Positions 15,250-35,988 of a stretch of DNA of 42,514 bases are shown piece after piece (position 1 is the first letter of the stretch; every line of letters starts with the position of its first letter). The stretch is taken from NCBI GenBank assembly GCA_964484995.1, contig CAZAHF010000003.1:4400-46913 (forward strand). Direction: 5' to 3'. The translations under genes and the position numbers were made by a program. The notes under the pieces are model-generated. The model did not search any database and was not told the DNA's origin. It worked only from the letters and a program-made list of their open reading frames with translations. This DNA is from an uncultured Candidatus Bathyarchaeia archaeon. GTDB taxonomy: Archaea > Thermoproteota > Bathyarchaeia > Hecatellales > Hecatellaceae.

Positions 15250-16032
15250 TTATTCTATTGTTGTTTTTTCAAAAACCCATGCTGCTAAAAACGTAAATAC
15301 TAAGGTTGCCCCCAAAAGAACTGTAAGACTTAAAGCTAAAGGAAAGAAACCAACACCAGTTAAAACTTTTCTTGCAGCATCAACACCATAAGTTAAAGGG
15401 TTTAAAAAAGCCATAATCTTCATCCAGCTAGGCATAGTCTCAACAGGGAAAAATGCTCCACTAAGAAAAAGCGTAGGCATAGCTATGAAGGTTGTTAAAA
15501 GCTGAAATCCCTCCATACTTTTTATTTTTGAGGCTAGAGTTATACCTAAACATGTAAAGGTTAAAGCTGTAAGAAAAACTGTTAGAACAAGGATAGGTAC
15601 CCCTTTTAACAAAAGGTTTGGTGTTAGAAGGTAGGCTACAGCTAAAACTATGAATCCTTGAAGAACAGCAACAGTAGAATCCCCTAGGGCTCTACCAAAA
15701 ATTAGGATACTTCTTGAGGTTGGAGCAACCAAAACCTCCTTTAAAAAACCAAACTCCTTATCCCATATAATGGAAATTCCAGCCATAAAAGACGTAAAAA
15801 ACACAGCCATCAGAATTATTCCAGGTATAAGGAAAGACATATAGTTCATACTGTTAAATGCACGGTAACCTTGAAAAGTTAAAGCTGAAGTAAACCCTAA
15901 ACCAAAAAACAGCATCCAAAAAAGAGGCTGGGCAATCGAACCTACAAGTCTAGACCTTGCTCTAATAAATCTTTTTACTTGCCTATACCACATCACATAG
16001 GTTGAAACCAAAATTTCTTTAGTCTTAACCAA
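15250..16032 (-). CDS. ABC-2 type transporter permease (DrrB-like)
   Basis: Six hydrophobic segments; DKEFGFLKEVLVAP, FLSGAFFP, NPLTYGVDA. Confidence 0.92.
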   Translation of the reverse strand: MVKTKEILVSTYVMWYRQVKRFIRARSRLVGSIAQPLFWMLFFGLGFTSALTFQGYRAFNSMNYMSFLIPGIILMAVFFTSFMAGISIIWDKEFGFLKEVLVAPTSRSILIFGRALGDSTVAVLQGFIVLAVAYLLTPNLLLKGVPILVLTVFLTALTFTCLGITLASKIKSMEGFQLLTTFIAMPTLFLSGAFFPVETMPSWMKIMAFLNPLTYGVDAARKVLTGVGFFPLALSLTVLLGATLVFTFLAAWVFEKTTIE

Positions 16033-16042
16033 GATGTCTTCT

Positions 16043-17038
16043 CTACCTCCTTCTCATATGATAAATACGTACATGGTCCATGAATCCAGCTTCATGTTCA
16101 CGAAGACTTCTACCCGTAAAATGAAGAAAAACATCTTCAAGGGTTGGTTTATGGTATCTTACCTCCTCAATTTTAACTTTAAGCTTTTGGGAAACCTCAA
16201 AAATTTTTGGTATTGTTTTTGAAGCATCTTCAACTGAAAACCTTATGGTTGTACCCCCGATTTGATGGGCATCTTCAACAAAACCCATTTCACCTAAACT
16301 TTTAAGCATCTCTTTAACCCTAAAACTATCTTCAACCTTAACATAAACAACTTCTTTACCAATTTGACGGGTTAATTCTTCAGGTTTTCCTATCGAGATT
16401 ATTTTTCCATGGTCTATTATAGCTACACGGTCACAAAGCTTTTCAGCTTCATCCATGTAGTGGGTTGTAAGAAAAACCGTTATCTCATGTTCTTCTTTCA
16501 GCTTCTTAATATAATCCCAAACATGAACCCTTGTTTGAGGATCTAAACCTAGGGTTGGTTCATCTAAAAATAGGATTTCAGGGTTATGGATAAGTGCACG
16601 TGCAATTTCAAGTCTACGCATCATTCCTCCACTATACCTTTTAACTTGAATATCAACCCACTTTTCAAGCTCAATAAATTTTAGTAGTTCATCTATTCTT
16701 TTTTTAAGTTCATTTGTTTGCATCTTGTAAACTTTGCCATGAACCCAAAGATTCTCTCTGCCAGTTAGTTCTCGGTCTAAGGTTATGTCTTGAAAAACAA
16801 CCCCTATTCTCTCTCTAACCTTTAAAGGATATTTTACAACATCGTATCCAGCAACTTTAGCCATTCCACTTGTAGGTTTCATCACTGTTACAAGAATGTT
16901 TAGAGTTGTTGTTTTTCCAGCTCCATTAGGTCCGAGAAAACCAAAAATTTCACCTTTTTCAACTTCAAAGCTTACATTATCAATAGCTAGAACATCTCCA
17001 AATTTTTTCGTCAAGTTTCTTATTTCAATAACACTCAT
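16043..17038 (-). CDS. ABC transporter ATP-binding protein (DrrA-like)
   Basis: GPNGAGKTT, YSGGMMRR, LFLDEPT, TTHYMDEAE, C-terminal PTLEDVFL. Confidence 0.95.
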   Translation of the reverse strand: MSVIEIRNLTKKFGDVLAIDNVSFEVEKGEIFGFLGPNGAGKTTTLNILVTVMKPTSGMAKVAGYDVVKYPLKVRERIGVVFQDITLDRELTGRENLWVHGKVYKMQTNELKKRIDELLKFIELEKWVDIQVKRYSGGMMRRLEIARALIHNPEILFLDEPTLGLDPQTRVHVWDYIKKLKEEHEITVFLTTHYMDEAEKLCDRVAIIDHGKIISIGKPEELTRQIGKEVVYVKVEDSFRVKEMLKSLGEMGFVEDAHQIGGTTIRFSVEDASKTIPKIFEVSQKLKVKIEEVRYHKPTLEDVFLHFTGRSLREHEAGFMDHVRIYHMRRR

Positions 17039-17150
17039 TTCAAAGCCACTCTACAATTGCTCTTAAAGCTTACAAAAACCTAAAACAATTAAAAGTTTGC
17101 TAACCTACAAACCTTTATACGTTTACAGTAGCTTAACTGGTTTATGAAGA

Positions 17151-17741
17151 ATGAAAGAGGAAGAAGAAAGACTTCTAAAACTTGTTGAAGAAGCAAAAAA
17201 ATGTGTTAAATGTAGGTTACATAAAACAAGAACAAACGTGGTTGTAGGTGAAGGTCCCTTAAACAGTCTAATAATGCTTGTTGGTGAAGCGCCAGGATAC
17301 TGGGAAGACAAGCAAGGCAAACCTTTTGTTGGAGCTGCAGGAAAACTTCTTGATAAACTTCTAGCTTTAGCAGGTTTAGACCGTAGCAAAGTTTACATAA
17401 CAAATGTGGTAAAATGTCGTCCACCAGGAAACAGGGAACCTAAACCGGATGAAATTGAAGCTTGTAAAGGTTATCTTGATGAACAAATAAGCTTAATTAA
17501 ACCAAAAATCATATGTACCCTTGGAAATGTAGCTTCAGCATATCTTCTACAAAAATTTGGATTCCAATTTCAACCTATGGGTAGAATTCATGGAAAAGTT
17601 TTTGAGGTAAACCAGCTAAAAATTATTCCTCTCTACCATCCAGCAACAGCTCTTTATAAACCTCCAATAAAAAAAGTTTTAGAGGAAGACTGGAGACTTG
17701 TTGGAGCTAAAATAAAAAATCTTTCCTTAAAGTTTTTCTAA
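17151..17741 (+). CDS. udg: Uracil-DNA glycosylase family 4 ([4Fe-4S])
   Basis: CVKCRL, GEAPG, GKPFVGAAG, NVVKCRPPGNR, YHPA. Confidence 0.94.
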   Translation: MKEEEERLLKLVEEAKKCVKCRLHKTRTNVVVGEGPLNSLIMLVGEAPGYWEDKQGKPFVGAAGKLLDKLLALAGLDRSKVYITNVVKCRPPGNREPKPDEIEACKGYLDEQISLIKPKIICTLGNVASAYLLQKFGFQFQPMGRIHGKVFEVNQLKIIPLYHPATALYKPPIKKVLEEDWRLVGAKIKNLSLKFF

Positions 17742-19775
17742 TCTACAAAGACAGGCTTTAAGTGAAGGATAACCAGAAATAGGGTCTCTCTCTTTGTCGT
17801 CTGTTAAAAGGTTTACGTTAGCTTCAACCCATCCATGCGGAATACTTACAACACCTGGCAAAATATCCTCAGTAATCTTAGCCTTAACCTTTATACTTCC
17901 ACGTAAAGTTTTAACTATAACAGTTTCACCATTAGAAACATTAAGCTTTTCCGCTGTTTTAGGATGAACTTCAACCGTAGGCTCAGGTTCATTTTTACGA
18001 AGCACCTCTAAATTTCGATATCTTGAATGGGTATAGTAAAGGCTTCTTGCACCTGTTGTTAAAACTAGTGGGTATTCTTCAGCTAAACTAGGGTTTAAAG
18101 GGCTTTCTAAAGGTTCAACATGGGTTGGTAGAGGGTCATAACCAAGATTTTTAAGTGTCTCAGAATAAAACTCTATCTTCTTTGTTGGGGTTCGAAAACC
18201 TCTTCCCTCATAGTCTCCAGGTTTTTTTGAACCATAAAAAAGACCAGCTGAGTTTTCTTTAAGCTTTTTAATGGTTAACCCGGTAGGTTTAAGCATTTCC
18301 TCAATAGCTTCTTCCTCATTTTCCCATGGGAAATACTCTTCATAACCCATTCTTTTTGCAAGCTCAAACCAAATCTTCCAGTCAGACCAACTTTCATAGA
18401 GAGGCTCTACTACTTTATTTCTAAAAGCAACATAAGGAATACCTGAGAGACTATAGTCAAAAATTCCTGTTTTCTCTAGGAAGGTGCATGCAGGAAGCAC
18501 TAGATTTGCAAGTTTAGCTGTTTCTGTCATAAAAATGTCGATTACAACAAGAAACTCAAGCTTTTTTAAAGCTTCTAAAACTTTTTTTGTGTTAGGCCAT
18601 GTAAGAATGGGATTTCCGCCGCAAATAATCATTGCTTTGATAGGGTAAGGTTTACCTGTAAGTAAAACCTCAGGTAAAACTACTGCTTGTCCTTCACCAT
18701 AAATTCTTCCCCAAAAACCATAAAATACCGGATACTCTTTAACACCTAAAGGTTTCTCAGAATCCTCTTTCTTGATTCTCATAGGGTTAACTCTTAACCT
18801 TGAAATGGTTATCCATCCACCTTCAACATCAATGTTCCCAGTTAAGGCTTGAAGAATCGCATGTGCACGGTTAGCCTGAACAGAAGCTACCTGTAGATTT
18901 AAAGCATTACCTGAAACAATACATGAAGGCTTATTAGTAGCATAAATTCTTGCAGCTTCTTTTATTGTTTCAGCCGGAACCCATGTTATTTTTTCAACTT
19001 CTTCTGGCGGATACTTTCTTACATGTTCTCTAAGCTCTTTAAATCCGTAAACCCAGTTTTCCACAAACTTTTCATCGTAAAGCTTCTCATCTATTATTAC
19101 GTTTATTAATCCTAAAGCCAAAGCACAGTCTGTTCCAGGTCTAGGCTGAATATGTAGGTCTGCTTTTTTAGCAAGCTCTGTTTTCTTACAGTCAACAACC
19201 ACAAGTTTTGCTCCTTTCTTTTTTGCTTCAAGAATATGTTTTAGTAGTGGTGGGCTAGAGTTAGATGGGTTAAAAGCCCAAAGAACTATACAACGTGATT
19301 TTTGAATATCGGGTTCTGGAAGCTTTCCAAGAGTTAGAAGAACTCCAAGAACTCTTGAACGAAAGCATAAACTTGCTGAAGAAAAAACGTTTGGAGTTCC
19401 GTACACGTCACAAAATCTATGAATAAAATGGTAGATGTCATGGTGACCTAGGCCTTCACCATAATAAACAGCTAAAGCTTTAGCCCCATACTTTTCTTTC
19501 ACCTCTTTAAGCTTTAAAGCAATAAGGTTTAATGCTTCATCCCAACTTATTTTCATCCACTTGCCGTTTTTTCTAACAATTGGATGCTTTAGCCTGTCAG
19601 GTGAATATAGGTAGTCTATGGCTGCATAACCTTTTGGACATAGTGCTCCTAAACTTTTTGGGTTTTCAGCAACACCCTCAACCTTTACAGCCTTACCGTT
19701 CTCCACGTAAACTCTTATTCCACACCCTTCACTACACATTCCACAAATAGTTTGAACAGTTTTTATGTTCCCCAT
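17727..19775 (-). CDS. Mo/W-bisPGD oxidoreductase, acetylene-hydratase-like subfamily
   Basis: N-terminal CGMCSEGC...C [4Fe-4S] motif, SLCF putative Cys metal ligand, PGTDCALALG, C-terminal LTTGARSLYYTHS...VEVHP...PHGW; no Tat signal. Confidence 0.9.
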   Translation of the reverse strand: MGNIKTVQTICGMCSEGCGIRVYVENGKAVKVEGVAENPKSLGALCPKGYAAIDYLYSPDRLKHPIVRKNGKWMKISWDEALNLIALKLKEVKEKYGAKALAVYYGEGLGHHDIYHFIHRFCDVYGTPNVFSSASLCFRSRVLGVLLTLGKLPEPDIQKSRCIVLWAFNPSNSSPPLLKHILEAKKKGAKLVVVDCKKTELAKKADLHIQPRPGTDCALALGLINVIIDEKLYDEKFVENWVYGFKELREHVRKYPPEEVEKITWVPAETIKEAARIYATNKPSCIVSGNALNLQVASVQANRAHAILQALTGNIDVEGGWITISRLRVNPMRIKKEDSEKPLGVKEYPVFYGFWGRIYGEGQAVVLPEVLLTGKPYPIKAMIICGGNPILTWPNTKKVLEALKKLEFLVVIDIFMTETAKLANLVLPACTFLEKTGIFDYSLSGIPYVAFRNKVVEPLYESWSDWKIWFELAKRMGYEEYFPWENEEEAIEEMLKPTGLTIKKLKENSAGLFYGSKKPGDYEGRGFRTPTKKIEFYSETLKNLGYDPLPTHVEPLESPLNPSLAEEYPLVLTTGARSLYYTHSRYRNLEVLRKNEPEPTVEVHPKTAEKLNVSNGETVIVKTLRGSIKVKAKITEDILPGVVSIPHGWVEANVNLLTDDKERDPISGYPSLKACLCRLEKL

Positions 19776-23924: not shown

Positions 23925-24013
23925 AAGTACCGAGACAAAACGTTAAAAGCTAGCTGCTACACAATTATTATATCCAAAAAACCTTATATTCTACATTTTT
24001 GGTTGGTGTAAAA

Positions 24014-24997
24014 ATGCCAAAACTTCCAGATGTACCTCTAACTGAAGAAGAACTTATTGACATGTACCAGAAAATGCTTACCATAAGAATGTTTGAGGAA
24101 AAAGCCTATGAACTTTTTACAAAAGGCTACATTCCAGGGGCAATTCATAGTTCTGTAGGTCAAGAAGCTGTTGCTGTTGGAGGTATTGCAGCCATAAGAA
24201 AAGAAGACTATGTTTTAGGTTCTCATAGGGGACATGGCCACTGTATTGCTAAGGGTGGAGATCCGAAAAGGATGATGGCTGAACTTTTCGGTAAGGCAAC
24301 AGGTTATTGTAAGGGTAAAGGCGGCTCTATGCATATCACCGACCCTAAGGTAGGACATCTAGGAGCAATAAGTATAGTTGGCGCCCAAATACCAATAGCT
24401 GTTGGTGTAGGCTTATCGATTAAGCTAAGAAAAACAGACCAAGTTTGTCTTTGTTTTTTTGGGGATGGTGCAGCTAACCAAGGAACTTTTCATGAAGGGT
24501 TAAATCTCGCATCTCTATGGAAGCTTCCAGTAATATTTATTTGTGAAAACAATCTTTATGCAGTAACAGTTCATGTTTCTAAATCTACCTCAGTAGAGAA
24601 TATAGCTCAAAGAGCTGTAGCATACAATATGCCTGGCGTAGTTGTTGACGGTATGGATGTTATAGCAGTCTATAAGGCTGCTTCTGAGGCTGTTAAAAAA
24701 GCAAGAAATGGGGAGGGACCTACACTTATAGAATGTAAAACCTACAGGTATTACGGCCATTCTAGAGGCGATCCTCCCTACGGTCCCTATAGAAAAAAAG
24801 AAGAATGGGAGGAGTGGAAAAGAAGAGACCCAATACCAAGGTTTAGAAGCATCCTAATAGAAAACAATGTTTTAACCGAGGAGGATGATAAGAGAATCCA
24901 GCAGAATGTTGTTAACCTTATTGAAGAAGCTGTTAAATTTGCTTTTGAAAGTCCAAATCCTTCACCTGAGGATGCTTTTAAAGATATTTATGTGTAG
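24014..24997 (+). CDS. TPP-dependent dehydrogenase E1 alpha, copy 1 (acetoin/pyruvate DH family)
   Basis: GQEA, SHRGHGH, GKGGSMH, GDGAANQGTFHE...ENN, YRYYGHS; ATG at 24014 preferred over track start 23999 (GGTG SD upstream). Confidence 0.93.
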   Translation: MPKLPDVPLTEEELIDMYQKMLTIRMFEEKAYELFTKGYIPGAIHSSVGQEAVAVGGIAAIRKEDYVLGSHRGHGHCIAKGGDPKRMMAELFGKATGYCKGKGGSMHITDPKVGHLGAISIVGAQIPIAVGVGLSIKLRKTDQVCLCFFGDGAANQGTFHEGLNLASLWKLPVIFICENNLYAVTVHVSKSTSVENIAQRAVAYNMPGVVVDGMDVIAVYKAASEAVKKARNGEGPTLIECKTYRYYGHSRGDPPYGPYRKKEEWEEWKRRDPIPRFRSILIENNVLTEEDDKRIQQNVVNLIEEAVKFAFESPNPSPEDAFKDIYV

Positions 24998-25006
24998 GTG
25001 TGGTTT

Positions 25007-25984
25007 ATGGTAAGAGAAATAGCCTATTTTGAGGCTCTTAGAGAAGCTTTAAGAGAAGAAATGTTAAAGGATGAAACTGTTTTTGTTATGGGGGAAGACA
25101 TAAAGCTTGGATACATTTTTGGTGTTACAAGAGGACTTGCTGAAGAGTTTGGTGAAGAACGTGTTAGAGACACACCAATATCAGAAAATACTCTTGTAGG
25201 AGCTGGTCTTGGTGCAGCAATAACAGGAACAAGACCTGTTGTTGAAATTATGTTTGCAGACCTTCTATGTTTAGCTATGGATCAGCTGGTAAACGAAATT
25301 GCAAAACTAAGATACATTACCGGCGGCCAAATTGAAAAAATACCTTTAGTTGTAAGAACACCTTTAGGTGTTTGGAAAGGTTATGGTGCAACCCACTCTC
25401 AGTCTCTTGAATCCTGGTTTGTTCATGTTCCAGGTTTAAAGGTTGTTATCGTGTCAACCCCCTACGATGCTAAAGGATTACTAAAATCTGCGATAAGAGA
25501 TGACAATCCTGTCCTTTTCTTTGAACATAAATCTCTTTACAGGATGACAGGACCTGTTCCAGAGGAAGAATATCTAATACCGCTTGGAAAAGCCGATATT
25601 AAAAGAGAAGGTGAAGATGTAACTATCATCAGTTATGGGTTAATGTTACATCGCACCCTTTCAGCTGCAAAAAAGCTTGAGGAGGATGGGATAAACGTTG
25701 AGGTTGTTGACCCCAGAACTCTTTTTCCTCTTGACCTTAAAACAATTTTAGATTCTGTCAAAAAAACTGGAAGACTTGTAATTGTGGAGGAAGACTGTAA
25801 AACTGGAGGGTTTGGTGCTGAGATTGCAGCTAGGGTTGTTGAGGAAGCCTTTGACTTTTTAGATGCCCCTATTAAACGAGTTGCAACTCCAGATGTACCA
25901 ATACCATTTAGTCCTGTTCTTGAGGAAGCTGTTCTTCCAAAAGAAGAAGATATAGTTAAAGCTGTAAAGGAAGTTGTTTTATAA
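25007..25984 (+). CDS. E1 beta, copy 1
   Basis: DTPISE, EIMFADL, GATHSQS, FFEHK, VVDPRTL; ATG 25007 preferred (GGTGTGG SD). Confidence 0.93.
   Translation: MVREIAYFEALREALREEMLKDETVFVMGEDIKLGYIFGVTRGLAEEFGEERVRDTPISENTLVGAGLGAAITGTRPVVEIMFADLLCLAMDQLVNEIAKLRYITGGQIEKIPLVVRTPLGVWKGYGATHSQSLESWFVHVPGLKVVIVSTPYDAKGLLKSAIRDDNPVLFFEHKSLYRMTGPVPEEEYLIPLGKADIKREGEDVTIISYGLMLHRTLSAAKKLEEDGINVEVVDPRTLFPLDLKTILDSVKKTGRLVIVEEDCKTGGFGAEIAARVVEEAFDFLDAPIKRVATPDVPIPFSPVLEEAVLPKEEDIVKAVKEVVL
25658..25832 (+). repeat. Direct repeat copy A (shared with 31304-31478)
   Basis: Exact runs of 65 bp (25658-25722), 43 bp (25740-25782) and 21 bp (25812-25832) at constant offset 5646. Confidence 0.92.
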
Positions 25985-26005: not shown

Positions 26006-27232
26006 TTAGAGAACTCTATCTAAAAGTTCTGTAACATCATACATAGACATTTTTGAGTTCAAATTTTTTATAGCGTCTGTAAGGTTTCTATAGCAGAACG
26101 GACATGAGGAGACTAAGACATTACATCCTGTTTTTTCAGCTTCACGTATTCTTTCAGCAGCTAACCCTAATGACTGTTCTGTAAAACCTGCTCTTAATCC
26201 TCCTCCTGCTCCACAACAAAAAGCATTTAGTTTAACTCTATCCATCTCAACAAGCTCAACACCAGGTATATTTTTTAGAATTTCTCTTGGCTGATCTGCA
26301 ACCATAGCGTTTTTGCCAAGATGAGCTAGATGTCTTACAAGATGACATGGGTCATGGTAGGTTACTTTCATCTTTAATTCTTTTGTAATTTTAAGTTTAC
26401 CCTCCTTAATTAGTTGACTTAAAAATTCTGTGATGTGTAGAAGGTTAAAGTTTAGTTTGCCAAAAATTTCTTGGTAATCGGTTTTAAATGTTCGATAACA
26501 TCCTGCACATGAGAAAACAACAGTTTTAGCTCCAACCTTCTCTATTGCTTCAATGTTATGTTTAGCTTGTTCTTCACCAATTTCACGTGCACCAACTCTA
26601 AACAATGGGGAGCCACAACACCATTCCTCTAACCCAAGAATTGTAAAGTTTACTCCAAGCTTTTTTAATATGCTAACAGTTGCTTTAGCTATGTTTTTTT
26701 GACGGTAAGATGAGGTGCATCCAACATAGTAGACTATATCCGCGTTTTCCATAGGTTTAATATTAAATTCTTCAGGAAGCCAATCAAGCCTCTTATTATG
26801 AGGCTCTAGGTATGGGTTATGGTTTTGTTTTGTCCACTCAGCAAACCGTTTATGTTGAGGTAAACCAAAACCCATGGAAAATAGGTCTGCCCTAAAAGCC
26901 TCATATATTCCCACATGGTCTATATGGTCTTTAACATAACATTTATCCCAACAGTTTCGACATGTAGAACACATATAGAATATTTCAGAAATTCTTTTTC
27001 CCGTCTCCTCATTTATAGGGAGAAGTCCTTCTAAAACTGCTAAGGCTATTTCTACCTTACCTCTAGCCTCAAAGCTTTCAAACGGGTGAGCCTCCGTGAT
27101 ACGTAAGGGACATACACCATCCACATTATCTCTAAAACGAGTTTGGTCTCTACAATAACCACACTTTATACAGCGGTAAAGGTCTTTTTCATATTTTTTT
27201 AAATGTTTTAGTTGAGCTGCTGTTTCACCCAA
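26006..27232 (-). CDS. GlcF/HdrD-like (Fe-S)-binding protein with two CCG domains
   Basis: CIKCGYC...CP, CSTCRNCWDKC, CCGSP, CAGC, HDPCH, CCGAGGG, CPFC. Confidence 0.92.
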   Translation of the reverse strand: MGETAAQLKHLKKYEKDLYRCIKCGYCRDQTRFRDNVDGVCPLRITEAHPFESFEARGKVEIALAVLEGLLPINEETGKRISEIFYMCSTCRNCWDKCYVKDHIDHVGIYEAFRADLFSMGFGLPQHKRFAEWTKQNHNPYLEPHNKRLDWLPEEFNIKPMENADIVYYVGCTSSYRQKNIAKATVSILKKLGVNFTILGLEEWCCGSPLFRVGAREIGEEQAKHNIEAIEKVGAKTVVFSCAGCYRTFKTDYQEIFGKLNFNLLHITEFLSQLIKEGKLKITKELKMKVTYHDPCHLVRHLAHLGKNAMVADQPREILKNIPGVELVEMDRVKLNAFCCGAGGGLRAGFTEQSLGLAAERIREAEKTGCNVLVSSCPFCYRNLTDAIKNLNSKMSMYDVTELLDRVL

Positions 27233-27235
27233 ACT

Positions 27236-28675
27236 TTAAACCTCCATTGGAAGCATCATCATTCCAGGGATTAGAATTCCGTTTGGGTCTAACGTCTTCT
27301 TTAAAGCCTTTAATGTTTCATAGTATTGTTTAGACCAGTGGCGTGCAACCAGCTCTCCAACAACACTTCCAAGCCAATAATGGATTCCACCATCCTTAAC
27401 AAGCACCTCAAAACCTTCCCTCCACATTTTTCTAACAACCTCACGTGCACCTGGGATATCGTCAAGCCAATAGATAAGAAGCATAGCATCAACCACATTC
27501 CAACTAACAACAAAATATAGGACATCAACAGGTTCTATCTGATACTTTTCACATTCACCTTTATACTTTTCAAAAAGCTGTTTCATCAAGTTATGAGGTC
27601 TAACATAATCATAAATTGGAACTTTTGCACATAGAGAAGCCCATCTTTGACCTTTAGGTCCTGCTCTTGGCCACCACTCAAAAATTCTTGGATAATAGTA
27701 ATATTTTAAAAATTCAGTACCAATTTCTTTTACACCAGTCTTTTTAACCATACTATTTACGTATTCAGCTTCTGTATCAGCTAGTTTTTCGTTTGATGCT
27801 TCAATAACCACGTGAAGAGTATACTCTTTACCTAACAAAGATTTAAAACCAGCTTTTCCAAGCGACTCATTAAGCCATGAAAGAAACCCCATTATTTCAG
27901 TTGGAATATGGGTTTTTGAAACTTCATAGGTTGCGTCAAGCAGCTGTTTAAGGTCTTTTGCTTCATAAGACAAAAATCTGACAGCTTCAGGGAAGGGATA
28001 AATCTTCATAACCGCCTGAGTTTTAACACCAAAAACTCCACAATCTCCAAGAAAAAGACCGGTAAGGTCAGGGCCTATCCCATATCTTATAAGCTTTTTT
28101 GCATGGGGATAAGCTCCAGAACCAGTATTTATTATCTCTCCTGTTGGCAGGACAACCTCTAGACTTTTAACGTTTTCACTTACAGTTCCATATTTTGCAC
28201 ATCCATAAGCTAAACTATGGTGGGATAACCCTCCACCAATAGTTGCTGAGGCTCCACTACCAGGACCAAGAGAACCAACTCTCCAACCCTTTTTTCTAAG
28301 TTCCGAGTAGAGTTTAGCCCATGTTGCACCACACTGAACAGTAACAGTCATCTCTTTTTCATTAATTTCAACTATATCACTCATTCTTGTAAGGTCTAAA
28401 ACTATTGCACCTTTCTGGTATTTTGTAAAATAAGCAGGACAAGTTCCTCCTCCTCTAGGAACAACAGACTTCTTAACCTTATTAGCCTCTTTAACTATTT
28501 CAGCTACCTCTTCAGTTGTTTTTGGGCGAACAACCATATCCGGTATAACTGGCGGTTCAGGGCTTATGTCGTTTGCATAAGCAATAAGATCAGGAAGCGA
28601 GGTTGTTACATATTTTTCCCCTACTTTTGAAGCAATAATTTGAACAAACTCGTCTAACATTTTCTCACTAGACAT
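27236..28675 (-). CDS. FAD-linked oxidoreductase (GlcD/VAO superfamily)
   Basis: RPKTTEEV, PRGGGT, ATIGG, LEVVLPTGEI, GPDLTGLF, C-terminal LDPNGILIPG. Confidence 0.9.
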   Translation of the reverse strand: MSSEKMLDEFVQIIASKVGEKYVTTSLPDLIAYANDISPEPPVIPDMVVRPKTTEEVAEIVKEANKVKKSVVPRGGGTCPAYFTKYQKGAIVLDLTRMSDIVEINEKEMTVTVQCGATWAKLYSELRKKGWRVGSLGPGSGASATIGGGLSHHSLAYGCAKYGTVSENVKSLEVVLPTGEIINTGSGAYPHAKKLIRYGIGPDLTGLFLGDCGVFGVKTQAVMKIYPFPEAVRFLSYEAKDLKQLLDATYEVSKTHIPTEIMGFLSWLNESLGKAGFKSLLGKEYTLHVVIEASNEKLADTEAEYVNSMVKKTGVKEIGTEFLKYYYYPRIFEWWPRAGPKGQRWASLCAKVPIYDYVRPHNLMKQLFEKYKGECEKYQIEPVDVLYFVVSWNVVDAMLLIYWLDDIPGAREVVRKMWREGFEVLVKDGGIHYWLGSVVGELVARHWSKQYYETLKALKKTLDPNGILIPGMMMLPMEV

Positions 28676-28677
28676 TT

Positions 28678-29481
28678 TTACCTTCCCTTAAACTCTGCTT
28701 TTCTCTTCTCTAAGAAGGCTTTGCATCCTTCAATACGGTCTTCAGTTGCAAACATTATTGTGTCAGCTTCACTCTCGTAGGCTAATCCTGTATCTAAATC
28801 TGTTTCTAAGCCTCTAACTATAGCGGCTTTAGCTAAAGCTAAAGCAATAGGGCTTTTACTCTTAAGTTTTTCAACAAGCTCATTTACAGCTTCATCAAGT
28901 TTATCTGGTGGAACAACCTTATTTACAAGACCTATTCTTTCAGCCTCTTTTGCACTAATTCTTTCTCCAAGCAAAATTAGCTCCATACCTTTTATTTTTC
29001 CAACTAAACGTGGAATTCTCTGGGTTCCACCCCAACCCGGAAATATTCCAAGATTAATTTCCGGTACACCAAATTCAGCGTTCTCAGAGGCAATTATAAA
29101 GTCGCATGCAGCTGCTATTTCAAGTCCTCCACCAAGACAATAACCGTTAACAGCAGCAATAACAGGTTTATCAAGTTTCTCAATTAGACGGTGCACCTCA
29201 TAACCAATATTTCGGAAAAATTTTCTAGCCTTAATTGGATGATCCATCACATCCGGTAAGAATACTTTTATGTCTGCACCTACACAAAATGCTCTACCTT
29301 GACCTGTTATAACAACAACTCTTACACTGTCATCTTGCTGAGCATCCCATAAAGCATCTTTTAAGGCTTTAGCAACATCAAGGTCTATAACCCAAAGTCC
29401 TTTAGGACCTCTATTAAAAACTATTTTTGCAACACCATCTTTTTTCTCATAAATTATTGGAGGTTGTTTTTCTTCTCCCAT
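28678..29481 (-). CDS. Enoyl-CoA hydratase (crotonase family)
   Basis: [32 protein letters not shown] (both catalytic Glu present); ATG 29481 preferred over GTG 29496. Confidence 0.93.
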
Positions 29482-29671
29482 AAAATTCTCCCTCACACAG
29501 GCTAAAGACGACTTTTACTGTTTTATGATAAGTTTTTAGATTATTAACTTTTTCTTAAGACTAGGAAAACTTTACAAAAATTAAACTATAAAGGTTTATT
29601 TATGAAAAAGTTAAATACTCATCATCAAGAGTAAAGTTTGTAACATAAAAATTAGAACTGGAGGATGTTCT

Positions 29672-30625
29672 ATGAATCTTAATAAAAACACATTAATCGA
29701 AATTTACCGGAACATAGTCTTGCTAAGAAAGCTTGATGAAAAGCTTATTGAGCTTTTTACAGCGGGAAAAGTGCCTGGATGGATTCATCCGTATGTTGGT
29801 CAGGAGGCTGTTGTTGCAGGGGTTGCTCCACATGTAAGAAAGGATGACTTTTTTTGTGCAACCCATAGAGGTCGAGCTGTCCATGTTCTTAAGGGAACAC
29901 CACTAAGAAAGTTTGTGGCTGAACTTCTAGGTAAAAAAACCGGTATTAATAAGGGGCGAGCTGGTGAAATGCATGTAATGAACTGGGAGGTTCACTCTGT
30001 TTCTTCAGGTATTGTTGGTGCAACTTTCCCTATGGCTGTAGGGTTTGGTATTGCATGTAAACTTGAAGGTGGAGATAAAATTGTTTTTTGTACTTTTGGA
30101 GATGGTGCATCAAACAGAGGAACTTTTCATGAGTCTCTAAATATGGCTTCTGTTTGGAAGCTTCCAATAGTTTTTATTTGTGAAAACAATCTTTATGCTC
30201 AGTTTACCCCATCTAAACTAACAACCTCTGTTTCGGATATAGCTAAAAGGGCTTCTGCCTACAATATGCCTAGTACAATTGTGGATGGAATGGATCCTAT
30301 AGCCGTATATGAGGCTGTTGGTGAAGCTGTGGAAAGAGCACGTAAAAGAGAAGGACCTACACTTGTAGAATGTAAAACCTATAGGTATCATGGGCATTTT
30401 TATGGTGATAAGTGGGAAACTTACCGAAGCCCTGAAGAGGTTGAGGCTTGGAAGAAAAAGGATCCTGTAATAACGTTTAAGGAAAGATTGTTAAAGGATG
30501 GTGTTTTAACAGAAAAACTTGTTGAAGAAATTTATAATGATGTTAATAGTCAAGTTGAAGATGCTTTAAAATTTGCTTTTGAAAGCCCTGAACCATCTCC
30601 TGAAGATGTTTATGAGGATTTATAG
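29672..30625 (+). CDS. TPP-dependent dehydrogenase E1 alpha, copy 2
   Basis: GQEA, THRGRA, GEMH, GDGASNRGTFHE...ENN, YRYHGHF. Confidence 0.93.
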   Translation: MNLNKNTLIEIYRNIVLLRKLDEKLIELFTAGKVPGWIHPYVGQEAVVAGVAPHVRKDDFFCATHRGRAVHVLKGTPLRKFVAELLGKKTGINKGRAGEMHVMNWEVHSVSSGIVGATFPMAVGFGIACKLEGGDKIVFCTFGDGASNRGTFHESLNMASVWKLPIVFICENNLYAQFTPSKLTTSVSDIAKRASAYNMPSTIVDGMDPIAVYEAVGEAVERARKREGPTLVECKTYRYHGHFYGDKWETYRSPEEVEAWKKKDPVITFKERLLKDGVLTEKLVEEIYNDVNSQVEDALKFAFESPEPSPEDVYEDL

Positions 30626-30640
30626 TGGAGGTGAGTATGT

Positions 30641-31621
30641 TTGGGTAAAAAAACTATAGCCTATATTGATGCTATTCGTGAGGCTTTACGGGAGGAAATG
30701 CTTAGAGACCCGAAAGTGATAGTTATAGGTGAAGATGTAGGGCTTGGTCAAGGAGCCTTCACGGTAACAAAGGGTCTCTACCAAGAATTTGGTAAAGACA
30801 GGGTGATAGATACACCTATCTCAGAAGAATCTATTATTGGTGCTTGTGTTGGTGCAGCTATGGCTGGTTTAAGACCAGTAGCAGAAATAATGTTTAACCC
30901 GTTTATGGCTTTGGTTATGGATCCGCTAATTAATCATGCATCATGCTATAAGTATGTTTCAGGTGGACAGGTTAAGGTTCCTATGGTTATTCGAACTCTA
31001 GTTTGTCAAGGTAGAGGAGCAGGACATGATCATGCTCCATTTTATGCGTCGTGGTTTATGCATGTTCCATGTATACGGGTTATTGTTCCTTCAACCCCAT
31101 ATGATGCTAAAGGTTTACTTAAAACGGCTATTCGAGATGATTATCCATGTATATTCTACGAGCATATAGACTTTTATCCAAGAAAACCAAACCTAGGTGA
31201 AATTCCGGAGGAGGAGTACACAATTCCTCTTGGTAAAGCTGACATTAAAAAGGAGGGGTCAGATGTTACAATAGTAGCTATCTTAACTGGTGTTAAAACC
31301 TCACTTTCAGCTGCAAAAAAGCTTGAGGAGGATGGGATAAACGTTGAGGTTGTTGACCCCAGAACTCTAGCACCCCTTGATAAGCAAACAATTTTAGATT
31401 CTGTCAAAAAAACTGGAAGACTTGTAATAGTTGAAACAGACTTTAAAACTGCTGGTGTTGGTGCTGAGATTGCAGCTATAGTTGCTGAGGAAGCTATGGA
31501 ATATTTGGATGCACCGATTAAACGGGTTGCAACAGCAGACATTCCAATATCCTTCACCAACGAAAAATACATTTTACCAAACGAAGAAGCAATAATTAAG
31601 GCTGTTAAAGATATATGTTAA
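30641..31621 (+). CDS. E1 beta, copy 2
   Basis: DTPISE, EIMFNPF, GAGHDHAP, IFYEH, VVDPRTL. Confidence 0.93.
   Translation: MGKKTIAYIDAIREALREEMLRDPKVIVIGEDVGLGQGAFTVTKGLYQEFGKDRVIDTPISEESIIGACVGAAMAGLRPVAEIMFNPFMALVMDPLINHASCYKYVSGGQVKVPMVIRTLVCQGRGAGHDHAPFYASWFMHVPCIRVIVPSTPYDAKGLLKTAIRDDYPCIFYEHIDFYPRKPNLGEIPEEEYTIPLGKADIKKEGSDVTIVAILTGVKTSLSAAKKLEEDGINVEVVDPRTLAPLDKQTILDSVKKTGRLVIVETDFKTAGVGAEIAAIVAEEAMEYLDAPIKRVATADIPISFTNEKYILPNEEAIIKAVKDIC
31304..31478 (+). repeat. Direct repeat copy B (shared with 25658-25832)
   Basis: Exact runs 31304-31368, 31386-31428 and 31458-31478. Confidence 0.92.
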
Positions 31622-31664: not shown

Positions 31665-32858
31665 TTGCATGAAGTTACAATGCCAAAGCTTTCTTTAACA
31701 ATGGAAACTGGAAAGATAGTAAGATGGCTTAAAAAAGAAGGAGATAAAGTGGAGAAGGGGGAACCTATACTTGAAATTGAAACAGAAAAAGTGACAGTAG
31801 AAGTTGAGGCGCCAGCCTCAGGAATACTACATAAAATACTTGCAAAAGAGGGTGAGGATGTTCCAATACAAAAAACAATAGCAATTATAAGAGAACCTGG
31901 AGAAGAAATACCTGAAGAGGTTGCTGCTCCACCCGTGGAAGCTAAAAAACCTGAGGTTGTTGCTGTAACAGAGAAACCTCTGGAAAGGATAAAAGCTTCC
32001 CCACTTGCAAAAAAACTTGCTAAAGAGTATGGAGTAGACCTTACAAAAATTAAGGGTACAGGTCCTGGTGGTAGAATTGTTAAAGAAGATGTTTTAAGAG
32101 CTGTTGAGGAAGCTAAAGCTGCAGCTGTCACGGTTACACCAACCCCAACTCCTGTTACTGTTGAAAAAGCTAAGGTTGTACCCTTAACAAGTATGAGAAA
32201 AACAATTGGAAGACGTATGGCTCAAAGTCTTCAAACAGCCCCCCAGCTAACTATAACAATGGAGGTAGACATGAGTGAAGCTGTAAAGTTTAGAGAACAA
32301 ATAACGTCAGTAACAGAAAAGAAACTGAATCTTAGGGTTACCTACACGGATATTATAGTTAAGGCTGTTGCTAAAGCACTTAAAGAATTTCCATTTATAA
32401 ATTCAAGACTTGAAGGAGATCAACTTAAACTTTTAGAGGAGGTTAATGTTGGTGTAGCTACAGCAGTAGAAGACGGGTTGGTTGTTCCTGTGGTTAAAAA
32501 TGCTGATAAAAAGTCTCTGATAGAAGTAGCCTCAGAAATTAGAAGTTTGGTTGAAAAAGCTAGACAGGGTAAGCTTTCCATAGAGGATGTTTCTGGCGGA
32601 ACTTTCACGGTTACAAATCTTGGTATGTATGGTGTTGATGTTTTTACACCTATTATTAACCCACCAGAAAGCGCAATTCTTGGAGTTGGAAGAATAGTTG
32701 AAAAACCTGTTGTTATAAATGGTCAGATAACAATCCGACCACTAACTGTTCTTAGTTTAACCTTTGACCATAGAGTTACAGACGGTGCTCAAGCAGCAGT
32801 TTTCCTACAAAGAGTTAAAGATCTCTTAGAAAAACCCGCCTTACTCTTTATTGAGTAG
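31665..32858 (+). CDS. Dihydrolipoamide acyltransferase E2 (one lipoyl domain)
   Basis: Lipoyl-Lys ETEKVT, PSBD ASPLAKKLA...GTGPGGRI, catalytic FDHRVTDG. Confidence 0.95.
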   Translation: MHEVTMPKLSLTMETGKIVRWLKKEGDKVEKGEPILEIETEKVTVEVEAPASGILHKILAKEGEDVPIQKTIAIIREPGEEIPEEVAAPPVEAKKPEVVAVTEKPLERIKASPLAKKLAKEYGVDLTKIKGTGPGGRIVKEDVLRAVEEAKAAAVTVTPTPTPVTVEKAKVVPLTSMRKTIGRRMAQSLQTAPQLTITMEVDMSEAVKFREQITSVTEKKLNLRVTYTDIIVKAVAKALKEFPFINSRLEGDQLKLLEEVNVGVATAVEDGLVVPVVKNADKKSLIEVASEIRSLVEKARQGKLSIEDVSGGTFTVTNLGMYGVDVFTPIINPPESAILGVGRIVEKPVVINGQITIRPLTVLSLTFDHRVTDGAQAAVFLQRVKDLLEKPALLFIE

Positions 32859-33720
32859 TTTTTTCTAAAAATTTTTTTGAGAACTCTACAGCCATAAAAG
32901 AGCTTCTTACAAAAGGAGCTGAGGCTACATATAAAAATCCGAGCTGATAAGCCTTTTTCTTATACTCCTCAAACTTTTCTGGTTTTATGTATTCTTTAAC
33001 CTCTAAGTGTTTTTTTGATGGACGTAAATATTGGCCTATAGTAAAAATGTCGCAGTTTACTGAACGTAAATCCTTCATAACCTGAAATACTTCTTCGTCT
33101 GTTTCACCTAAACCAACCATTATACCAGACTTAGTAAAAATTTTTGGGTTTAGCTTTTTTATTTTTTCTAAAACCCTTAGTGAAGTTTTATAAGATGCTT
33201 TCGGTCTTACAATCGGGTAAAGTCTCGGAACAGTTTCAAGATTATGGCCTATAATATCAGGTGAAACATCCACAATTTTTTTAATACACTCATCTGAACC
33301 CTGAAAATCTGGAATTAAAACTTCTACTCTAGTGTTCGGGTTTAGCTTTTTTATCTCCTCTACTGTTTTAACAAACTGGTTTACACCAAAATCTTCCAAG
33401 TCATCACGTGTAACAGAAGTTATAACAACATGTTTTAGTCCAAGTCTTCTAACAGCCTCAGCTACATGTTTTGGCTCTTCTGGATCTGGAGGTAGAGGAT
33501 TACCTTTAGTTACATTACAGAATTTACAGTTTCTTGTACATATGTTTCCAAGGATTAGGAAGGTTGCTGTACGGTGAGCATAACAAATACCAATATTTGG
33601 GCATGCTGCATTCTCACAAATAGTGTGAAGAGATAAATCTTTAAGTAAGTTTCTCATCTCCTGAAGAACCTTTTGATCTGGAATTCTAGTCTTAATCCAC
33701 TCTGGCTTTTTAACACTCAT
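32848..33720 (-). CDS. lipA: Lipoyl synthase
   Basis: KKPEW, CENAACPNIGIC (CX4CX5C), CTRNCKFC, C-terminal VRSS. Confidence 0.96.
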   Translation of the reverse strand: MSVKKPEWIKTRIPDQKVLQEMRNLLKDLSLHTICENAACPNIGICYAHRTATFLILGNICTRNCKFCNVTKGNPLPPDPEEPKHVAEAVRRLGLKHVVITSVTRDDLEDFGVNQFVKTVEEIKKLNPNTRVEVLIPDFQGSDECIKKIVDVSPDIIGHNLETVPRLYPIVRPKASYKTSLRVLEKIKKLNPKIFTKSGIMVGLGETDEEVFQVMKDLRSVNCDIFTIGQYLRPSKKHLEVKEYIKPEKFEEYKKKAYQLGFLYVASAPFVRSSFMAVEFSKKFLEKTTQ

Positions 33721-34420
33721 AAATGGTTTTCACCAACAATTCCTCTAAACTAACCCTTTTTACTTTAACATCAAAAGTTTCAGCAAAATACTTGACATAT
33801 TTCTTTTTTACCTCTAAAACTGAAATTTCTCTTCCAAGAACTTCAGCCATGGAGGTAACATCTTTCCCTACCAAACCACATGGTACAATCATTTTAAAAT
33901 ACTTCATGTTTGGGTTTACATTCAAAGCAAAACCATGTTTTGTAACCATGGATTTAACCCTAATTCCGATAGCTGCAATCTTTTTATTTTTAACCCAGAC
34001 TCCAGGAAAACCTTTAACTATCTCAGCATTCAATCCATACTCTTCTTTTAACATTTTTACAATGGACTCTTCAAGCTTCCAAACATAGCTGTGTATATCC
34101 AAACCGTAGCTTTTAAGGTCTAGGATTGGATATCCAATAAGCTGTCCAGGTCCATGATAGGTAACATCACCACCTCTGTCAACCCTATAAACCGCTATTC
34201 CCTTCTTTTTTAACTCTTCAACTGAAACAAGAATGTTTGAGAAGTTCCCACCCATACCAACAGTGAAAACCGGATGATGTTCTAAGAGCATCAAAACATC
34301 TTTTATCTTCTTTTTAAATCTATCCTCCCAAAATTTTTCTTGAAGATTTAAAGCTTCTTTATAGTCTATCAAACCTAAGTCTAGTAGGTAACACTCATTA
34401 AAGGTTTTTTCTTCCGCCAC
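33710..34420 (-). CDS. lipB: Lipoyl(octanoyl) transferase
   Basis: LLEHHPVFT, DRGGDVTYHGPGQL, KIAAIG, HGFALNV, IVPCG. Confidence 0.95.
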   Translation of the reverse strand: MAEEKTFNECYLLDLGLIDYKEALNLQEKFWEDRFKKKIKDVLMLLEHHPVFTVGMGGNFSNILVSVEELKKKGIAVYRVDRGGDVTYHGPGQLIGYPILDLKSYGLDIHSYVWKLEESIVKMLKEEYGLNAEIVKGFPGVWVKNKKIAAIGIRVKSMVTKHGFALNVNPNMKYFKMIVPCGLVGKDVTSMAEVLGREISVLEVKKKYVKYFAETFDVKVKRVSLEELLVKTIYEC

Positions 34421-34569: not shown

Positions 34570-35988
34570 TTGGGGGAGGGTATAACAATTAGTGTTGTAG
34601 AAAAAAATACTGATCTAACAGTTATTGGGGCAGGACCTGGAGGATATGTTGCTGCAATAAGAGCAGCTCAACTTGGTGGAAAAGTTGTTTTAGTTGAAAA
34701 AGAGGAAGTTGGAGGAGTATGTTTAAACAAGGGATGTATACCAACTAAAACCCTTCTAAGAACAACTGAGCTTTTAACCCTACTTGGTAAAGCAAAAGAT
34801 TTTGGGGTAAATATAGACAGTTGGTCTGTCAACTTTAAAAAAATGTTGGAAAGGAAGAATCAAGTTGTTAAAAGGCTTGTTATGGGTGTAAAAACTCTCT
34901 TAAAAAGAAATGGTGTAGACCTTGTTTATGGTTCTGCTCAAATAGTAAAATCTGGTGAAATTAAGGTTTTAAGAAATGATGGTGGTAAGGAAGTTCTTAG
35001 GTCAAGGAAAATTATAGTTGCTACAGGCTCTAAACCAGCAAAACCACCTATTCCAGGTGTAGACACTACTGGCGTCTTAACTAGTGATGAGGTTTTTAAG
35101 CTTGAAGTTCTTCCTCAAAGTCTTCTGATTGTTGGTGGTGGCCCTGTTGGGTTAGAGTTTGCTCAAATTTTTTCTAGTCTTGGTGTTGAGGTTACAGTTG
35201 TTGAGATGCTTCCTCATCTACTACCAAACGAGGATGAAGAAATTGGTTTAATGCTTCATAAAATTATGGAAAAAAACGGTGTAAAAGTTTTTGTAAACAC
35301 AAAAGTGACAAAAATAGGTGGAGAAAAAGATGAAAAACAAGTTTATCTTTTAGGTAAGAGTGGTGAGGATATTAAAAAAGCTGAAAAGGTTCTTTTAGCT
35401 GTTGGAAGAACACCAAACATTGAAGGTTTAGGTTTAGATTCAATCGGTGTAAGCTTTGATAAACGTGGAATATCGACAAACAACAAGATGGAAACAAATG
35501 TTTCAGGGGTTTATGCGATAGGCGATGTAGCAGGAAAGTTTTTGCTTGCTCATACAGCCTCAGAGGAAGGTGTTGTTGCCGCTGAAAATGCTTTAGGCTA
35601 TGAGCGTAAAATAAATTATCGTGCAGTTCCAAGATGTGTTTTTACTGTTCCTGAGGTTGCTTGTGTAGGGTTAACTGAAAAACAGGCTAGGGAGGCTGGT
35701 TATAACCTTAAAATCGGGAGATTTCCGTTTTTAGCAAGTGGAAGAGCTTTAACCATGGATGAGACAGACGGCTTTATAAAAGTTCTTGTTGACGGTGATA
35801 CTGACGAAATTTTAGGTGTTCATATTATTGGGCCTTTAGCCTCAGAACTAATTCCTGAAGCTGTTTTGGCTATAAACCTTGAAGCAACAACAAAAGAAAT
35901 TATTGACACAATCCATGCCCACCCAACCTTAGCCGAAGCCTTAAAAGAAGCAGTCTTAGATGCTGAAAAAAGAGCAATTCACAAATAG
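34570..35988 (+). CDS. lpdA: Dihydrolipoamide dehydrogenase E3
   Basis: GAGPGGYVAA, GGVCLNKGCIPTK redox disulfide, C-terminal HAHPTLAE. Confidence 0.96.
   Translation: MGEGITISVVEKNTDLTVIGAGPGGYVAAIRAAQLGGKVVLVEKEEVGGVCLNKGCIPTKTLLRTTELLTLLGKAKDFGVNIDSWSVNFKKMLERKNQVVKRLVMGVKTLLKRNGVDLVYGSAQIVKSGEIKVLRNDGGKEVLRSRKIIVATGSKPAKPPIPGVDTTGVLTSDEVFKLEVLPQSLLIVGGGPVGLEFAQIFSSLGVEVTVVEMLPHLLPNEDEEIGLMLHKIMEKNGVKVFVNTKVTKIGGEKDEKQVYLLGKSGEDIKKAEKVLLAVGRTPNIEGLGLDSIGVSFDKRGISTNNKMETNVSGVYAIGDVAGKFLLAHTASEEGVVAAENALGYERKINYRAVPRCVFTVPEVACVGLTEKQAREAGYNLKIGRFPFLASGRALTMDETDGFIKVLVDGDTDEILGVHIIGPLASELIPEAVLAINLEATTKEIIDTIHAHPTLAEALKEAVLDAEKRAIHK

Follow-up and report, generated by a model that had tools for sequence, protein, structure and literature searches.

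A divergent E1 of a lipoate-dependent dehydrogenase complex in a Hecatellales archaeon: conserved catalytic set, remodelled surroundings and probable role

The window analysed here is a 42,514-nucleotide stretch from the genome of a hot-sediment archaeon, an uncultured Candidatus Bathyarchaeia member of the family Hecatellaceae (GCA_964484995.1, contig CAZAHF010000003.1, positions 4,400 to 46,913 of the forward strand). It holds two E1 gene pairs of the alpha2beta2 thiamine diphosphate (ThDP)-dependent dehydrogenase family. The whole genome encodes two E1 alpha subunits and a single E2, which lies in the window. Copy 1 has canonical motifs and no E2 of its own, and copy 2 differs from it in several active-site motifs. 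The question raised by this locus is what the divergent copy does and whether its altered active site means a new substrate. An earlier note, made from the sequence, had described copy 2 as a second E1 whose remodelled pocket would accept a charged or bulkier substrate. Coordinates are window positions unless otherwise labelled.

23999-24997, + strand: E1 alpha, copy 1, canonical motifs
24998-25984, + strand: E1 beta, copy 1, canonical motifs
29672-30625, + strand: E1 alpha, copy 2, 317 aa, ThDP/PP-domain subunit (Pfam E1_dh, 279 bits)
30641-31621, + strand: E1 beta, copy 2, 326 aa, Pyr and C-terminal domains (Pfam Transket_pyr, 139 bits; Transketolase_C, 128 bits)
31665-32858, + strand: E2, with lipoyl, E3/E1-binding and acyltransferase core domains (Pfam); closest solved structures are E2 components of pyruvate dehydrogenase (E2p)

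We favour, with moderate confidence, the view that copy 2 is the resident and catalytically competent E1 of the single lipoate-dependent complex of its genus (E1-E2-E3 with LipA and LipB), which would be acetyl-transferring. The substrate would be pyruvate or a near analogue, an acetoin-type ketone being less likely. The sequence changes would re-tune the environment of the catalytic His, the entry loops and the subunit interface, and would not build a site for a charged or bulky substrate. That copy 2 has changed its substrate is a real possibility, if not the outcome we would expect. In anaerobic archaea, complexes of this lipoate-dependent kind are unusual, with substrates that are for the most part untested. 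The locus is a natural experiment: its single E2 is served by a canonical E1 and by another that has diverged strongly. The latter lacks residues that do not vary between bacteria and human (human alpha His92 and Ser123, and the beta HSQS loop), yet it is kept by selection. Its activity would tell what role the lost residues play and whether the Bathyarchaeia complex serves substrates other than pyruvate. If its specificity proved unchanged, copy 2 would simply be a divergent member of a well-known family.

Catalytic set and changed residues of copy 2

Copy 2 belongs, as a divergent variant, to a well-known family of enzymes. Like other E1s of the alpha2beta2 type, it is split between an alpha subunit with the PP domain and a beta subunit with the Pyr and C-terminal domains, and a partner E2 (lipoyl, subunit-binding and acyltransferase domains) and an E3 are both encoded nearby. 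Alignment to the human pyruvate dehydrogenase (PDH) E1 (1NI4) and to that of Geobacillus stearothermophilus (E1p, 3DUF) indicates that every known catalytic and ThDP-binding residue is retained. The GDG..NN and DTPISE strings that the earlier note had read in both copies are indeed present. In the alpha subunit, the Mg-ThDP motif GDGASNRG...CENN (30098-30190) follows the pattern GDG-x(25-28)-NN, and the diphosphate anchors H65 and R66 (human Y89 and R90 by alignment), the aminopyrimidine loop G113-V115 and the catalytic His residues H39 (human H63) and H242 (human H263) are kept. The beta subunit retains E62, the cofactor-activating Glu of DTPISE, as well as M84, F85, F88 and the catalytic H131. 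By family homology, beta E62 would activate ThDP and the substrate carbonyl would add to C2, with alpha H39 and H242 and beta H131 keeping it in place. From there the acyl group would be handed to the lipoyl-lysine of the PDH-type E2.

Around this conserved set, the following stretches are altered.

29861-29881, + strand: alpha THRGRAV (residues 64-70); H65 and R66 kept, H68 changed to R and H70 to V at near-invariant His positions
29954-29974, + strand: alpha GRAGEMH (residues 95-101), corresponding to the human G122-M126 stretch; G97A and S99E at invariant positions
30200-30202, + strand: alpha Q177, at the position of human M200 and Geobacillus I206
30392-30400, + strand: alpha GHF; H242 is the catalytic His and F243 lies at the human Ser264 site
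30884-30904, + strand: beta EIMFNPF; F85 and F88, which stack on ThDP, make up the nest around the catalytic His, with P87 between them in place of a conserved Asp
31025-31045, + strand: beta HDHAPFY; catalytic H131 flanked by D130 and by A132-P133-F134-Y135, where Q/T-H-S-Q-S-L is usual

The changes from SHRGHGH to THRGRAV and from GKGGSMH to GRAGEMH that the earlier note had singled out are as it described them, and H68R, H70V, G97A and S99E are rare. Neither H68R nor S99E was seen in any of the roughly 280 further E1 alpha sequences compared, and the columns of H70V and G97A are otherwise 0.99-1.00 conserved. The change from GHS to GHF is real too, but it is not unusual: among 282 E1 alphas the residue after GH is Ser in 131, Phe in 81, Tyr in 21 and Val in 18, Phe being common in acetoin-type (aco-type) and in Bathyarchaeia E1s. 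Likewise, in the change from EIMFADL to EIMFNPF, P87 is rare (frequency 0.007 for D87P among the 150 closest representatives from a library of 1.8 billion proteins searched in full with HMMER), but the Asn is common in aco-type and Bathyarchaeia E1s. As for the replacement of HSQS by HDHAP, the string is correct but had been read two residues out of register. Since both BLASTP and HMMER align T-H-S-Q-S-L of copy 1 with D-H-A-P-F-Y of copy 2, the catalytic beta His is kept, and the true loop changes are S132A, Q133P, S134F and L135Y, with D130 preceding the His. In the same 150 representatives, Q133P does not occur and an H-A-P-F loop was not found, while S132A and S134F are lineage-specific, at or near zero among the 150-280 relatives compared. 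Hence the earlier note's own test, whether its variants occur in standard acetoin or pyruvate dehydrogenases, has a split answer: they do for GHF and for the Asn of FNPF, and they do not for the rest. Two further first-shell differences were not in its list, W37 (human F61) and Q177. Four lineage-specific Cys residues of the beta subunit (K102C, G122C, G144C and V170C) are kept in both species of the genus, three of them in or next to strands in the core of its Pyr domain.

This divergent variant is so far confined to one genus and one metagenomic relative. None of the solved PDH or branched-chain 2-oxoacid dehydrogenase E1s aligned (human E1 alpha; Pyrobaculum and Geobacillus E1 betas) carries the rare residues of copy 2. 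A scan of GTDB species genomes with two patterns, including [ED]MH[IV][MTI][NH][WM]E for alpha 99-106, gave only the sister metagenome-assembled genome (MAG) above 50% identity.

The divergence extends beyond the pocket. Of the 167 alpha positions with a conservation of 75% or more in a set whose consensus is dominated by the main Bathyarchaeia clade, copy 2 replaces 47 (28%). On the same measure the nearest outside relative (P0007) replaces 24%, two other loci 23% (L026) and 15% (L003), copy 1 13.5% and a typical member 0.6%. Replacement is concentrated in the first part of the subunit, with 46% of conserved positions changed in residues 1-130 vs. 15% in residues 131-317 (p = 1e-5), and 19 of the 25 replacements in the beta subunit fall in its Pyr domain. 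It is these two regions that come together at the active site and at the alpha/beta' interface. Clustering of the changes near contact residues was rejected: in a hand count with windows of ±3 residues around the ThDP and substrate contacts given in the literature, about 8 of 51 positions were replaced inside and 39 of 266 outside, so that there is no local enrichment and the bias is regional. A remodelled site is thus a fair description of copy 2, given that the differences are conserved under purifying selection (see below), but the remodelling is not confined to the pocket.

Evolutionary history of the two copies

A genome of the same genus was compared. It is the Ca. Hecatellales archaeon B76_G16 MAG from Guaymas (contig QMXD01000019.1), referred to here as the sister genome. 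Hecatellales belong to the Bathyarchaeia; their genomes come so far from geothermal settings, and acetogenesis has been proposed for at least one of them (PMC9635834). The sister genome carries the whole island, in the same gene order, with copy 2 only. Besides the E1 and E2 genes, the island in our window comprises the following.

26006-29496, - strand: operon encoding a crotonase, a flavoprotein of degenerate GlcD-like type and a CCG Fe-S protein resembling GlcF/HdrD; located upstream of copy 2 and transcribed divergently from it; syntenic in the sister genome
32848-33720, - strand: lipA
33710-34420, - strand: lipB
34570-35988, + strand: lpdA (E3)

The site at which the sister genome lacks copy 1 falls exactly between the CCG gene and ino1, and copy 2 is the sole E1 found there, in a genome that keeps E2, E3, LipA and LipB. 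Identity between the two copy 2 versions is 88% for alpha and 90% for beta. The signature residues are kept, position 70 alone differing (Val vs. Phe). Ratios of nonsynonymous to synonymous substitution (dN/dS) between the two genomes are 0.081 for the alpha and 0.072 for the beta subunit of copy 2, with 0.080 for DapA, 0.089 for E2 and 0.030 for the crotonase. Copy 2 is under strong purifying selection. Because the sister genome has copy 2 only, with a conserved signature and low dN/dS, we regard copy 2 as the resident functional E1 and copy 1 as the accessory one. Calling copy 2 the "second E1" is therefore misleading. The crotonase (28678-29496) is the most conserved gene of the island, with 95% amino acid identity and a dN/dS of 0.03.

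In phylogenetic trees, copy 2 sits on a stem of 0.52 and is sister to a metagenomic E1 pair (P0007 for alpha, P0279 for beta; support 0.985-0.99), its nearest relative outside the genus, which shows intermediate motifs (GRGGDMH, GHY and H-A-K-S-Y). Together they form a small, heterogeneous Bathyarchaeia E1 subclade, sister to the main Bathyarchaeia clade, to which copy 1 belongs. This placement in separate clades makes the two copies old paralogues and not the products of a recent duplication. They are 51% identical in alpha and 60% in beta. The best database relative of the copy 2 alpha subunit reaches 55%, the P0007/P0279 pair being 55% identical in alpha and 65% in beta. The main clade, including the relatives of copy 1, shares with copy 2 the same class-level radiation and the same E1a-E1b-E2 operon type. 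Copy 2 differs from it in its subclade, its long stem and its extent of replacement. Compared with ten relatives of the class, copy 2 has identities of 46% (alpha) and 53% (beta), where the relatives show 52% and 59% among themselves. The E2 is not accelerated, its values being 51% against these relatives and 46% among them. Both E1 subunits would have gained their many substitutions on the genus stem, mostly in the Pyr domain of beta and the N-terminal third of alpha. These presumably included Arg68-Glu99 in place of an invariant His-Ser, Gln177 in place of a hydrophobic thiazolium contact and the rebuilt loop around the catalytic beta His (P87, D130, A132-P133-F134-Y135). The rebuilt copy 2 would since have been held by strong purifying selection.

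Copy 2 also holds the E1a-E1b-E2 operon position that is usual in relatives of the class, with gaps of 15 nt between alpha and beta and of 43 nt between beta and E2. The earlier note had it fused into the E2 operon; the genes are co-operonic but not fused. A genome from another Bathyarchaeia family (G025) has a copy-1-type E1 only, located beside ino1, and a single, unlinked E2. The ino1-E1a-E1b neighbourhood recurs in that genome and, loosely, in a Chloroflexia MAG; the loci concerned in the absence of copy 1 and in this recurrence are window 23999-25984, L021 13475-13601, L109 6961-10139 and L186 6842-11028.

Sequence has probably passed from one beta gene to the other. A tract of 65 nt is identical in both (25658-25722 in copy 1 and 31304-31368 in copy 2, both on the + strand). 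It lies within about 210 nt of 83-93% identity in the C-terminal domain (approximately 25655-25870 and 31300-31510), the genes being otherwise 50-70% identical. Since the beta subunit of the sister genome and P0279 both differ from our genome in this tract, it probably reflects a recent gene conversion in this species, by which the copy 1 patch was carried over to copy 2 once the two species had separated. In Geobacillus, the C-terminal domain of E1 beta is the docking site of the E2 binding domain, and the shared tract would at the least fit the use of a single E2 by both E1s. With one E2 for copy 2 and the canonical copy 1, the two E1s are likely to divide the work to some extent.

Substrate of copy 2

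The proposal of a charged or bulkier substrate rested on an added Arg/Glu/Asp set. Alpha positions 68 and 99 are His and Ser in 276 of 282 sequences, and the three lineages without H68 also lack S99 (Arg/Glu in copy 2, Thr/Gln in P0013 and Trp/Thr in L117). P0007 has His/Asp, and an acidic residue at alpha 99 is seen in no further E1 alpha of the loci retrieved from relatives and metagenomes. A simulation study of the human E1 puts the stretch G122-M126 at the alpha-beta-beta' interface and close to A88-H92, which is located at the active site (bioRxiv 10.1101/2022.05.17.492373). Because the two positions co-vary and the corresponding human stretches are adjacent, R68 and E99 may well form a mutual salt bridge that replaces the His-Ser contact, and would then not be ligands for a charged substrate.

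Comparison with solved enzymes shows what was altered at the substrate site itself. The heterotetrameric y-type PDH E1 (human PDHA1/PDHB, 1NI4; TIGR03182/PRK09212) shares with copy 2 the fold families, the GDG..NN motif and the E1a-E1b-E2 operon. Equivalents of the human alpha H63, R90 and H263 and beta E59, M81, F85 and H128 are present, and the human alpha subunit is the best solved match of the copy 2 alpha (209 bits). The differences are H92 to Arg, S123 to Glu, G121 to Ala, M200 to Gln, F61 to Trp and S264 to Phe in alpha, and H-S-Q-C to H-A-P-F and N84 to Pro in beta; control by phosphorylation is not expected in copy 2. Geobacillus E1p (1W85, 3DUF; PMC2663715) is a close solved match of the beta subunit (274 bits). 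The equivalents of its beta H128, of the Phe nest F82/F85 and of alpha H271 are kept, and its E2 also has a peripheral subunit-binding domain. It differs in having I206 where copy 2 has Gln, no Pro between the nest Phe residues, and S-D-S-L where A-P-F-Y follows the catalytic His. In the human enzyme, pyruvate is surrounded by alpha F61, H63, Y89, M200 and H263 and beta M82, and the Gln before the catalytic His contacts it too (PMC6168537). Human M200 or Geobacillus I206 is the inner-loop contact with the thiazolium ring (PMC2663715, PMC6168537), and the nest of Geobacillus beta H128 consists of F82, F85, T124 and P125 (PMC2663715). Copy 2 differs at four of these sites: W37 for F61, Q177 for M200/I206, F243 beside the catalytic alpha His, and beta D130 for Gln. 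Alpha positions 37, 177 and 243 vary across the E1 family, position 177 being Met in 130, Ile in 66, Glu in 47 and Gln in 4 of the 282 sequences. A shift of preference relative to copy 1 is plausible in view of Q177, D130 and the A-P-F-Y loop.

The partner E2 resembles mammalian and Geobacillus E2p (282 and 241 bits) more than the E2s of branched-chain 2-oxoacid dehydrogenases (118-137 bits), in keeping with pyruvate. Several points weigh against our preferred role for copy 2. The likeness to E2p reflects ancestry as much as specificity. The copy 2 alpha subunit scores 328.7 bits with the NCBIfam equivalog PDH_E1_alph_y (TIGR03182), below the cut-off of 393.85 that the copy 1 alpha passes with 398.3 bits; the beta subunit, with 363.1 bits, is above the PRK09212 cut-off of 321. 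The contacts were assigned through sequence alignment to the human and Geobacillus literature, and substrate preference might well be altered by D130, next to the catalytic His, and by Q177, at the site of thiazolium contact. The conservation consensus leans on the main clade, and the subclade relatives also replace 15-24% of its positions. Each genome of the genus has one alpha subunit (POR_N) of a ferredoxin-dependent 2-oxoacid oxidoreductase (G000:C2:51264-51935 in the source genome, G001:C1:26605-27276 in the sister), so that a pyruvate role of the complex is not required. Finally, the crotonase and flavoprotein/CCG neighbours hint at a pathway other than plain pyruvate oxidation.

These points bear on the idea of a neofunctionalised E1, in which a different substrate, charged or bulkier, is accommodated in a pocket made by the new Arg, Glu, Asp and aromatic residues. 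Examples would be a dicarboxylic or aromatic 2-oxo acid produced by the flavoprotein/CCG dehydrogenase, with the acyl-CoA product passing to the adjacent crotonase. We consider it unlikely. In its favour, the first-shell positions W37, Q177, F243 and beta D130 differ from copy 1, otherwise invariant residues are lost in a state that selection maintains, and the alpha subunit falls short of the PDH equivalog cut-off; copy 2 moreover coexists with a canonical E1 on one E2, next to an operon syntenic in both species, in a 1.4-Mb genome with a single ferredoxin-dependent oxidoreductase. However, the R68/E99 pair shows co-variation and maps to the interface, the His residues that bind the carboxylate and carbonyl of pyruvate are retained, and the E2 is E2p-like and not accelerated. 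Trp, Gln and Phe occur elsewhere in the family at the first-shell positions, and the flavoprotein lacks the His motif of hydroxy-acid dehydrogenases. As copy 2 is the only E1 found in the sister genome, a niche substrate would also deprive the complex of its central role there. Since the Arg/Glu pair co-varies, the substrate His residues are kept, the E2 is of PDH type, the changes are spread and GHF and FN are ordinary, a charged or bulky substrate finds no positive support in these comparisons; the site is remodelled, and a change of substrate may or may not have followed. The loss of several family-invariant residues might instead suggest a decaying or catalytically dead paralogue kept as a scaffold, but this is hardly credible, with dN/dS of 0.07-0.08, all catalytic and cofactor ligands intact and copy 2 as the only E1 found in a genome where E2, E3, LipA and LipB persist. 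The idea of a pseudogene was rejected on dN/dS and the intact catalytic residues.

An acetoin-type E1, acting on a neutral alpha-hydroxyketone or diketone, would make copy 2 an archaeal counterpart of AcoAB, associated with E2, LipAB and a flavoprotein/CCG pair as in anaerobic Firmicutes. Our reference for this type is the lpdA-E1a-E1b-E2 operon, under sigma-54 regulation, of an Enterococcus plasmid. In its aco-type form the alpha motif is GHF-x-GD, and copy 2 reads GHFYGD; GHFEGD is found in the Enterococcus, Desulfosporosinus and Syntrophomonadaceae operons, and FNDF in the Enterococcus beta subunit, which corresponds to the FN-x-F of copy 2. The nearest bacterial matches are aco-type operons of Desulfosporosinus, Syntrophomonadaceae and clostridia, and these carry a sigma-54 regulator, a zinc-dependent alcohol dehydrogenase, AcoX, LipB-LipA, GcvH and a flavoprotein with a CCG protein. 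An acidic D130 next to the catalytic His would, moreover, disfavour a carboxylate. Nevertheless, copy 2 branches within the Bathyarchaeia E1 radiation and not with the bacterial AcoA proteins, and canonical aco E1s retain HRGHGH, GKGGSMH and HSQS. Neither AcoX nor the sigma-54 regulator AcoR nor a butanediol/acetoin dehydrogenase was found in the island, all of which are present in the Desulfosporosinus cluster (L135). We find this explanation distinctly improbable, and retain pyruvate or a near analogue as the preferred substrate.

Flavoprotein/CCG neighbours and their bacterial counterparts

The bacterial counterparts of the flavoprotein/CCG pair adjoin aco-type operons in Desulfosporosinus, Syntrophomonadaceae and Chloroflexota. 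A conserved cluster in Desulfosporosinus, Syntrophomonadaceae and two metagenome contigs consists of a sigma-54 regulator, a zinc-dependent alcohol dehydrogenase, E1a, E1b, an AcoX-like protein, E2, LipB-LipA, GcvH, a FAD_binding_4 flavoprotein and a CCG protein. The pair was located as follows.

26006-28675: window
15258-18426: L135
Also in L029, L148, L156, L160 and L179

Clusters with the flavoprotein/CCG pair have no lpd inside, and those containing lpd lack the pair. In the bacterial clusters as in the window, the flavoproteins are devoid of the His of the C-terminal EHGxG-like motif. The island could be imagined as the archaeal form of an uncharacterised lipoate-linked redox system, made up of the remodelled E1, one PDH-type E2, LipA/LipB, the GlcD-fold flavoprotein, the HdrD/GlcF-like CCG protein and the crotonase. 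The divergent E1 would take a non-canonical carbonyl substrate, and the dihydrolipoyl arm of E2 would be re-oxidised at least partly by the flavoprotein/CCG pair, in a thiol-disulfide reaction resembling that of heterodisulfide reductase, and not by E3 alone. We regard this as a long shot. A role of the pair as a replacement of E3 was considered and set aside: Lpd is encoded elsewhere in all four Firmicutes genomes tested, so that such a replacement is not required.

A crotonase gene also lies directly 3' of E2 on another Bathyarchaeia-type metagenome contig (L094 11362-12096). In Desulfosporosinus sp. OT (L135 12148-13740 and 13759-15300), a carboxymuconolactone-decarboxylase (CMD/AhpD-like) domain is attached to the C-terminus of the E2, and a single protein of 513 aa combines LipB with LipA.

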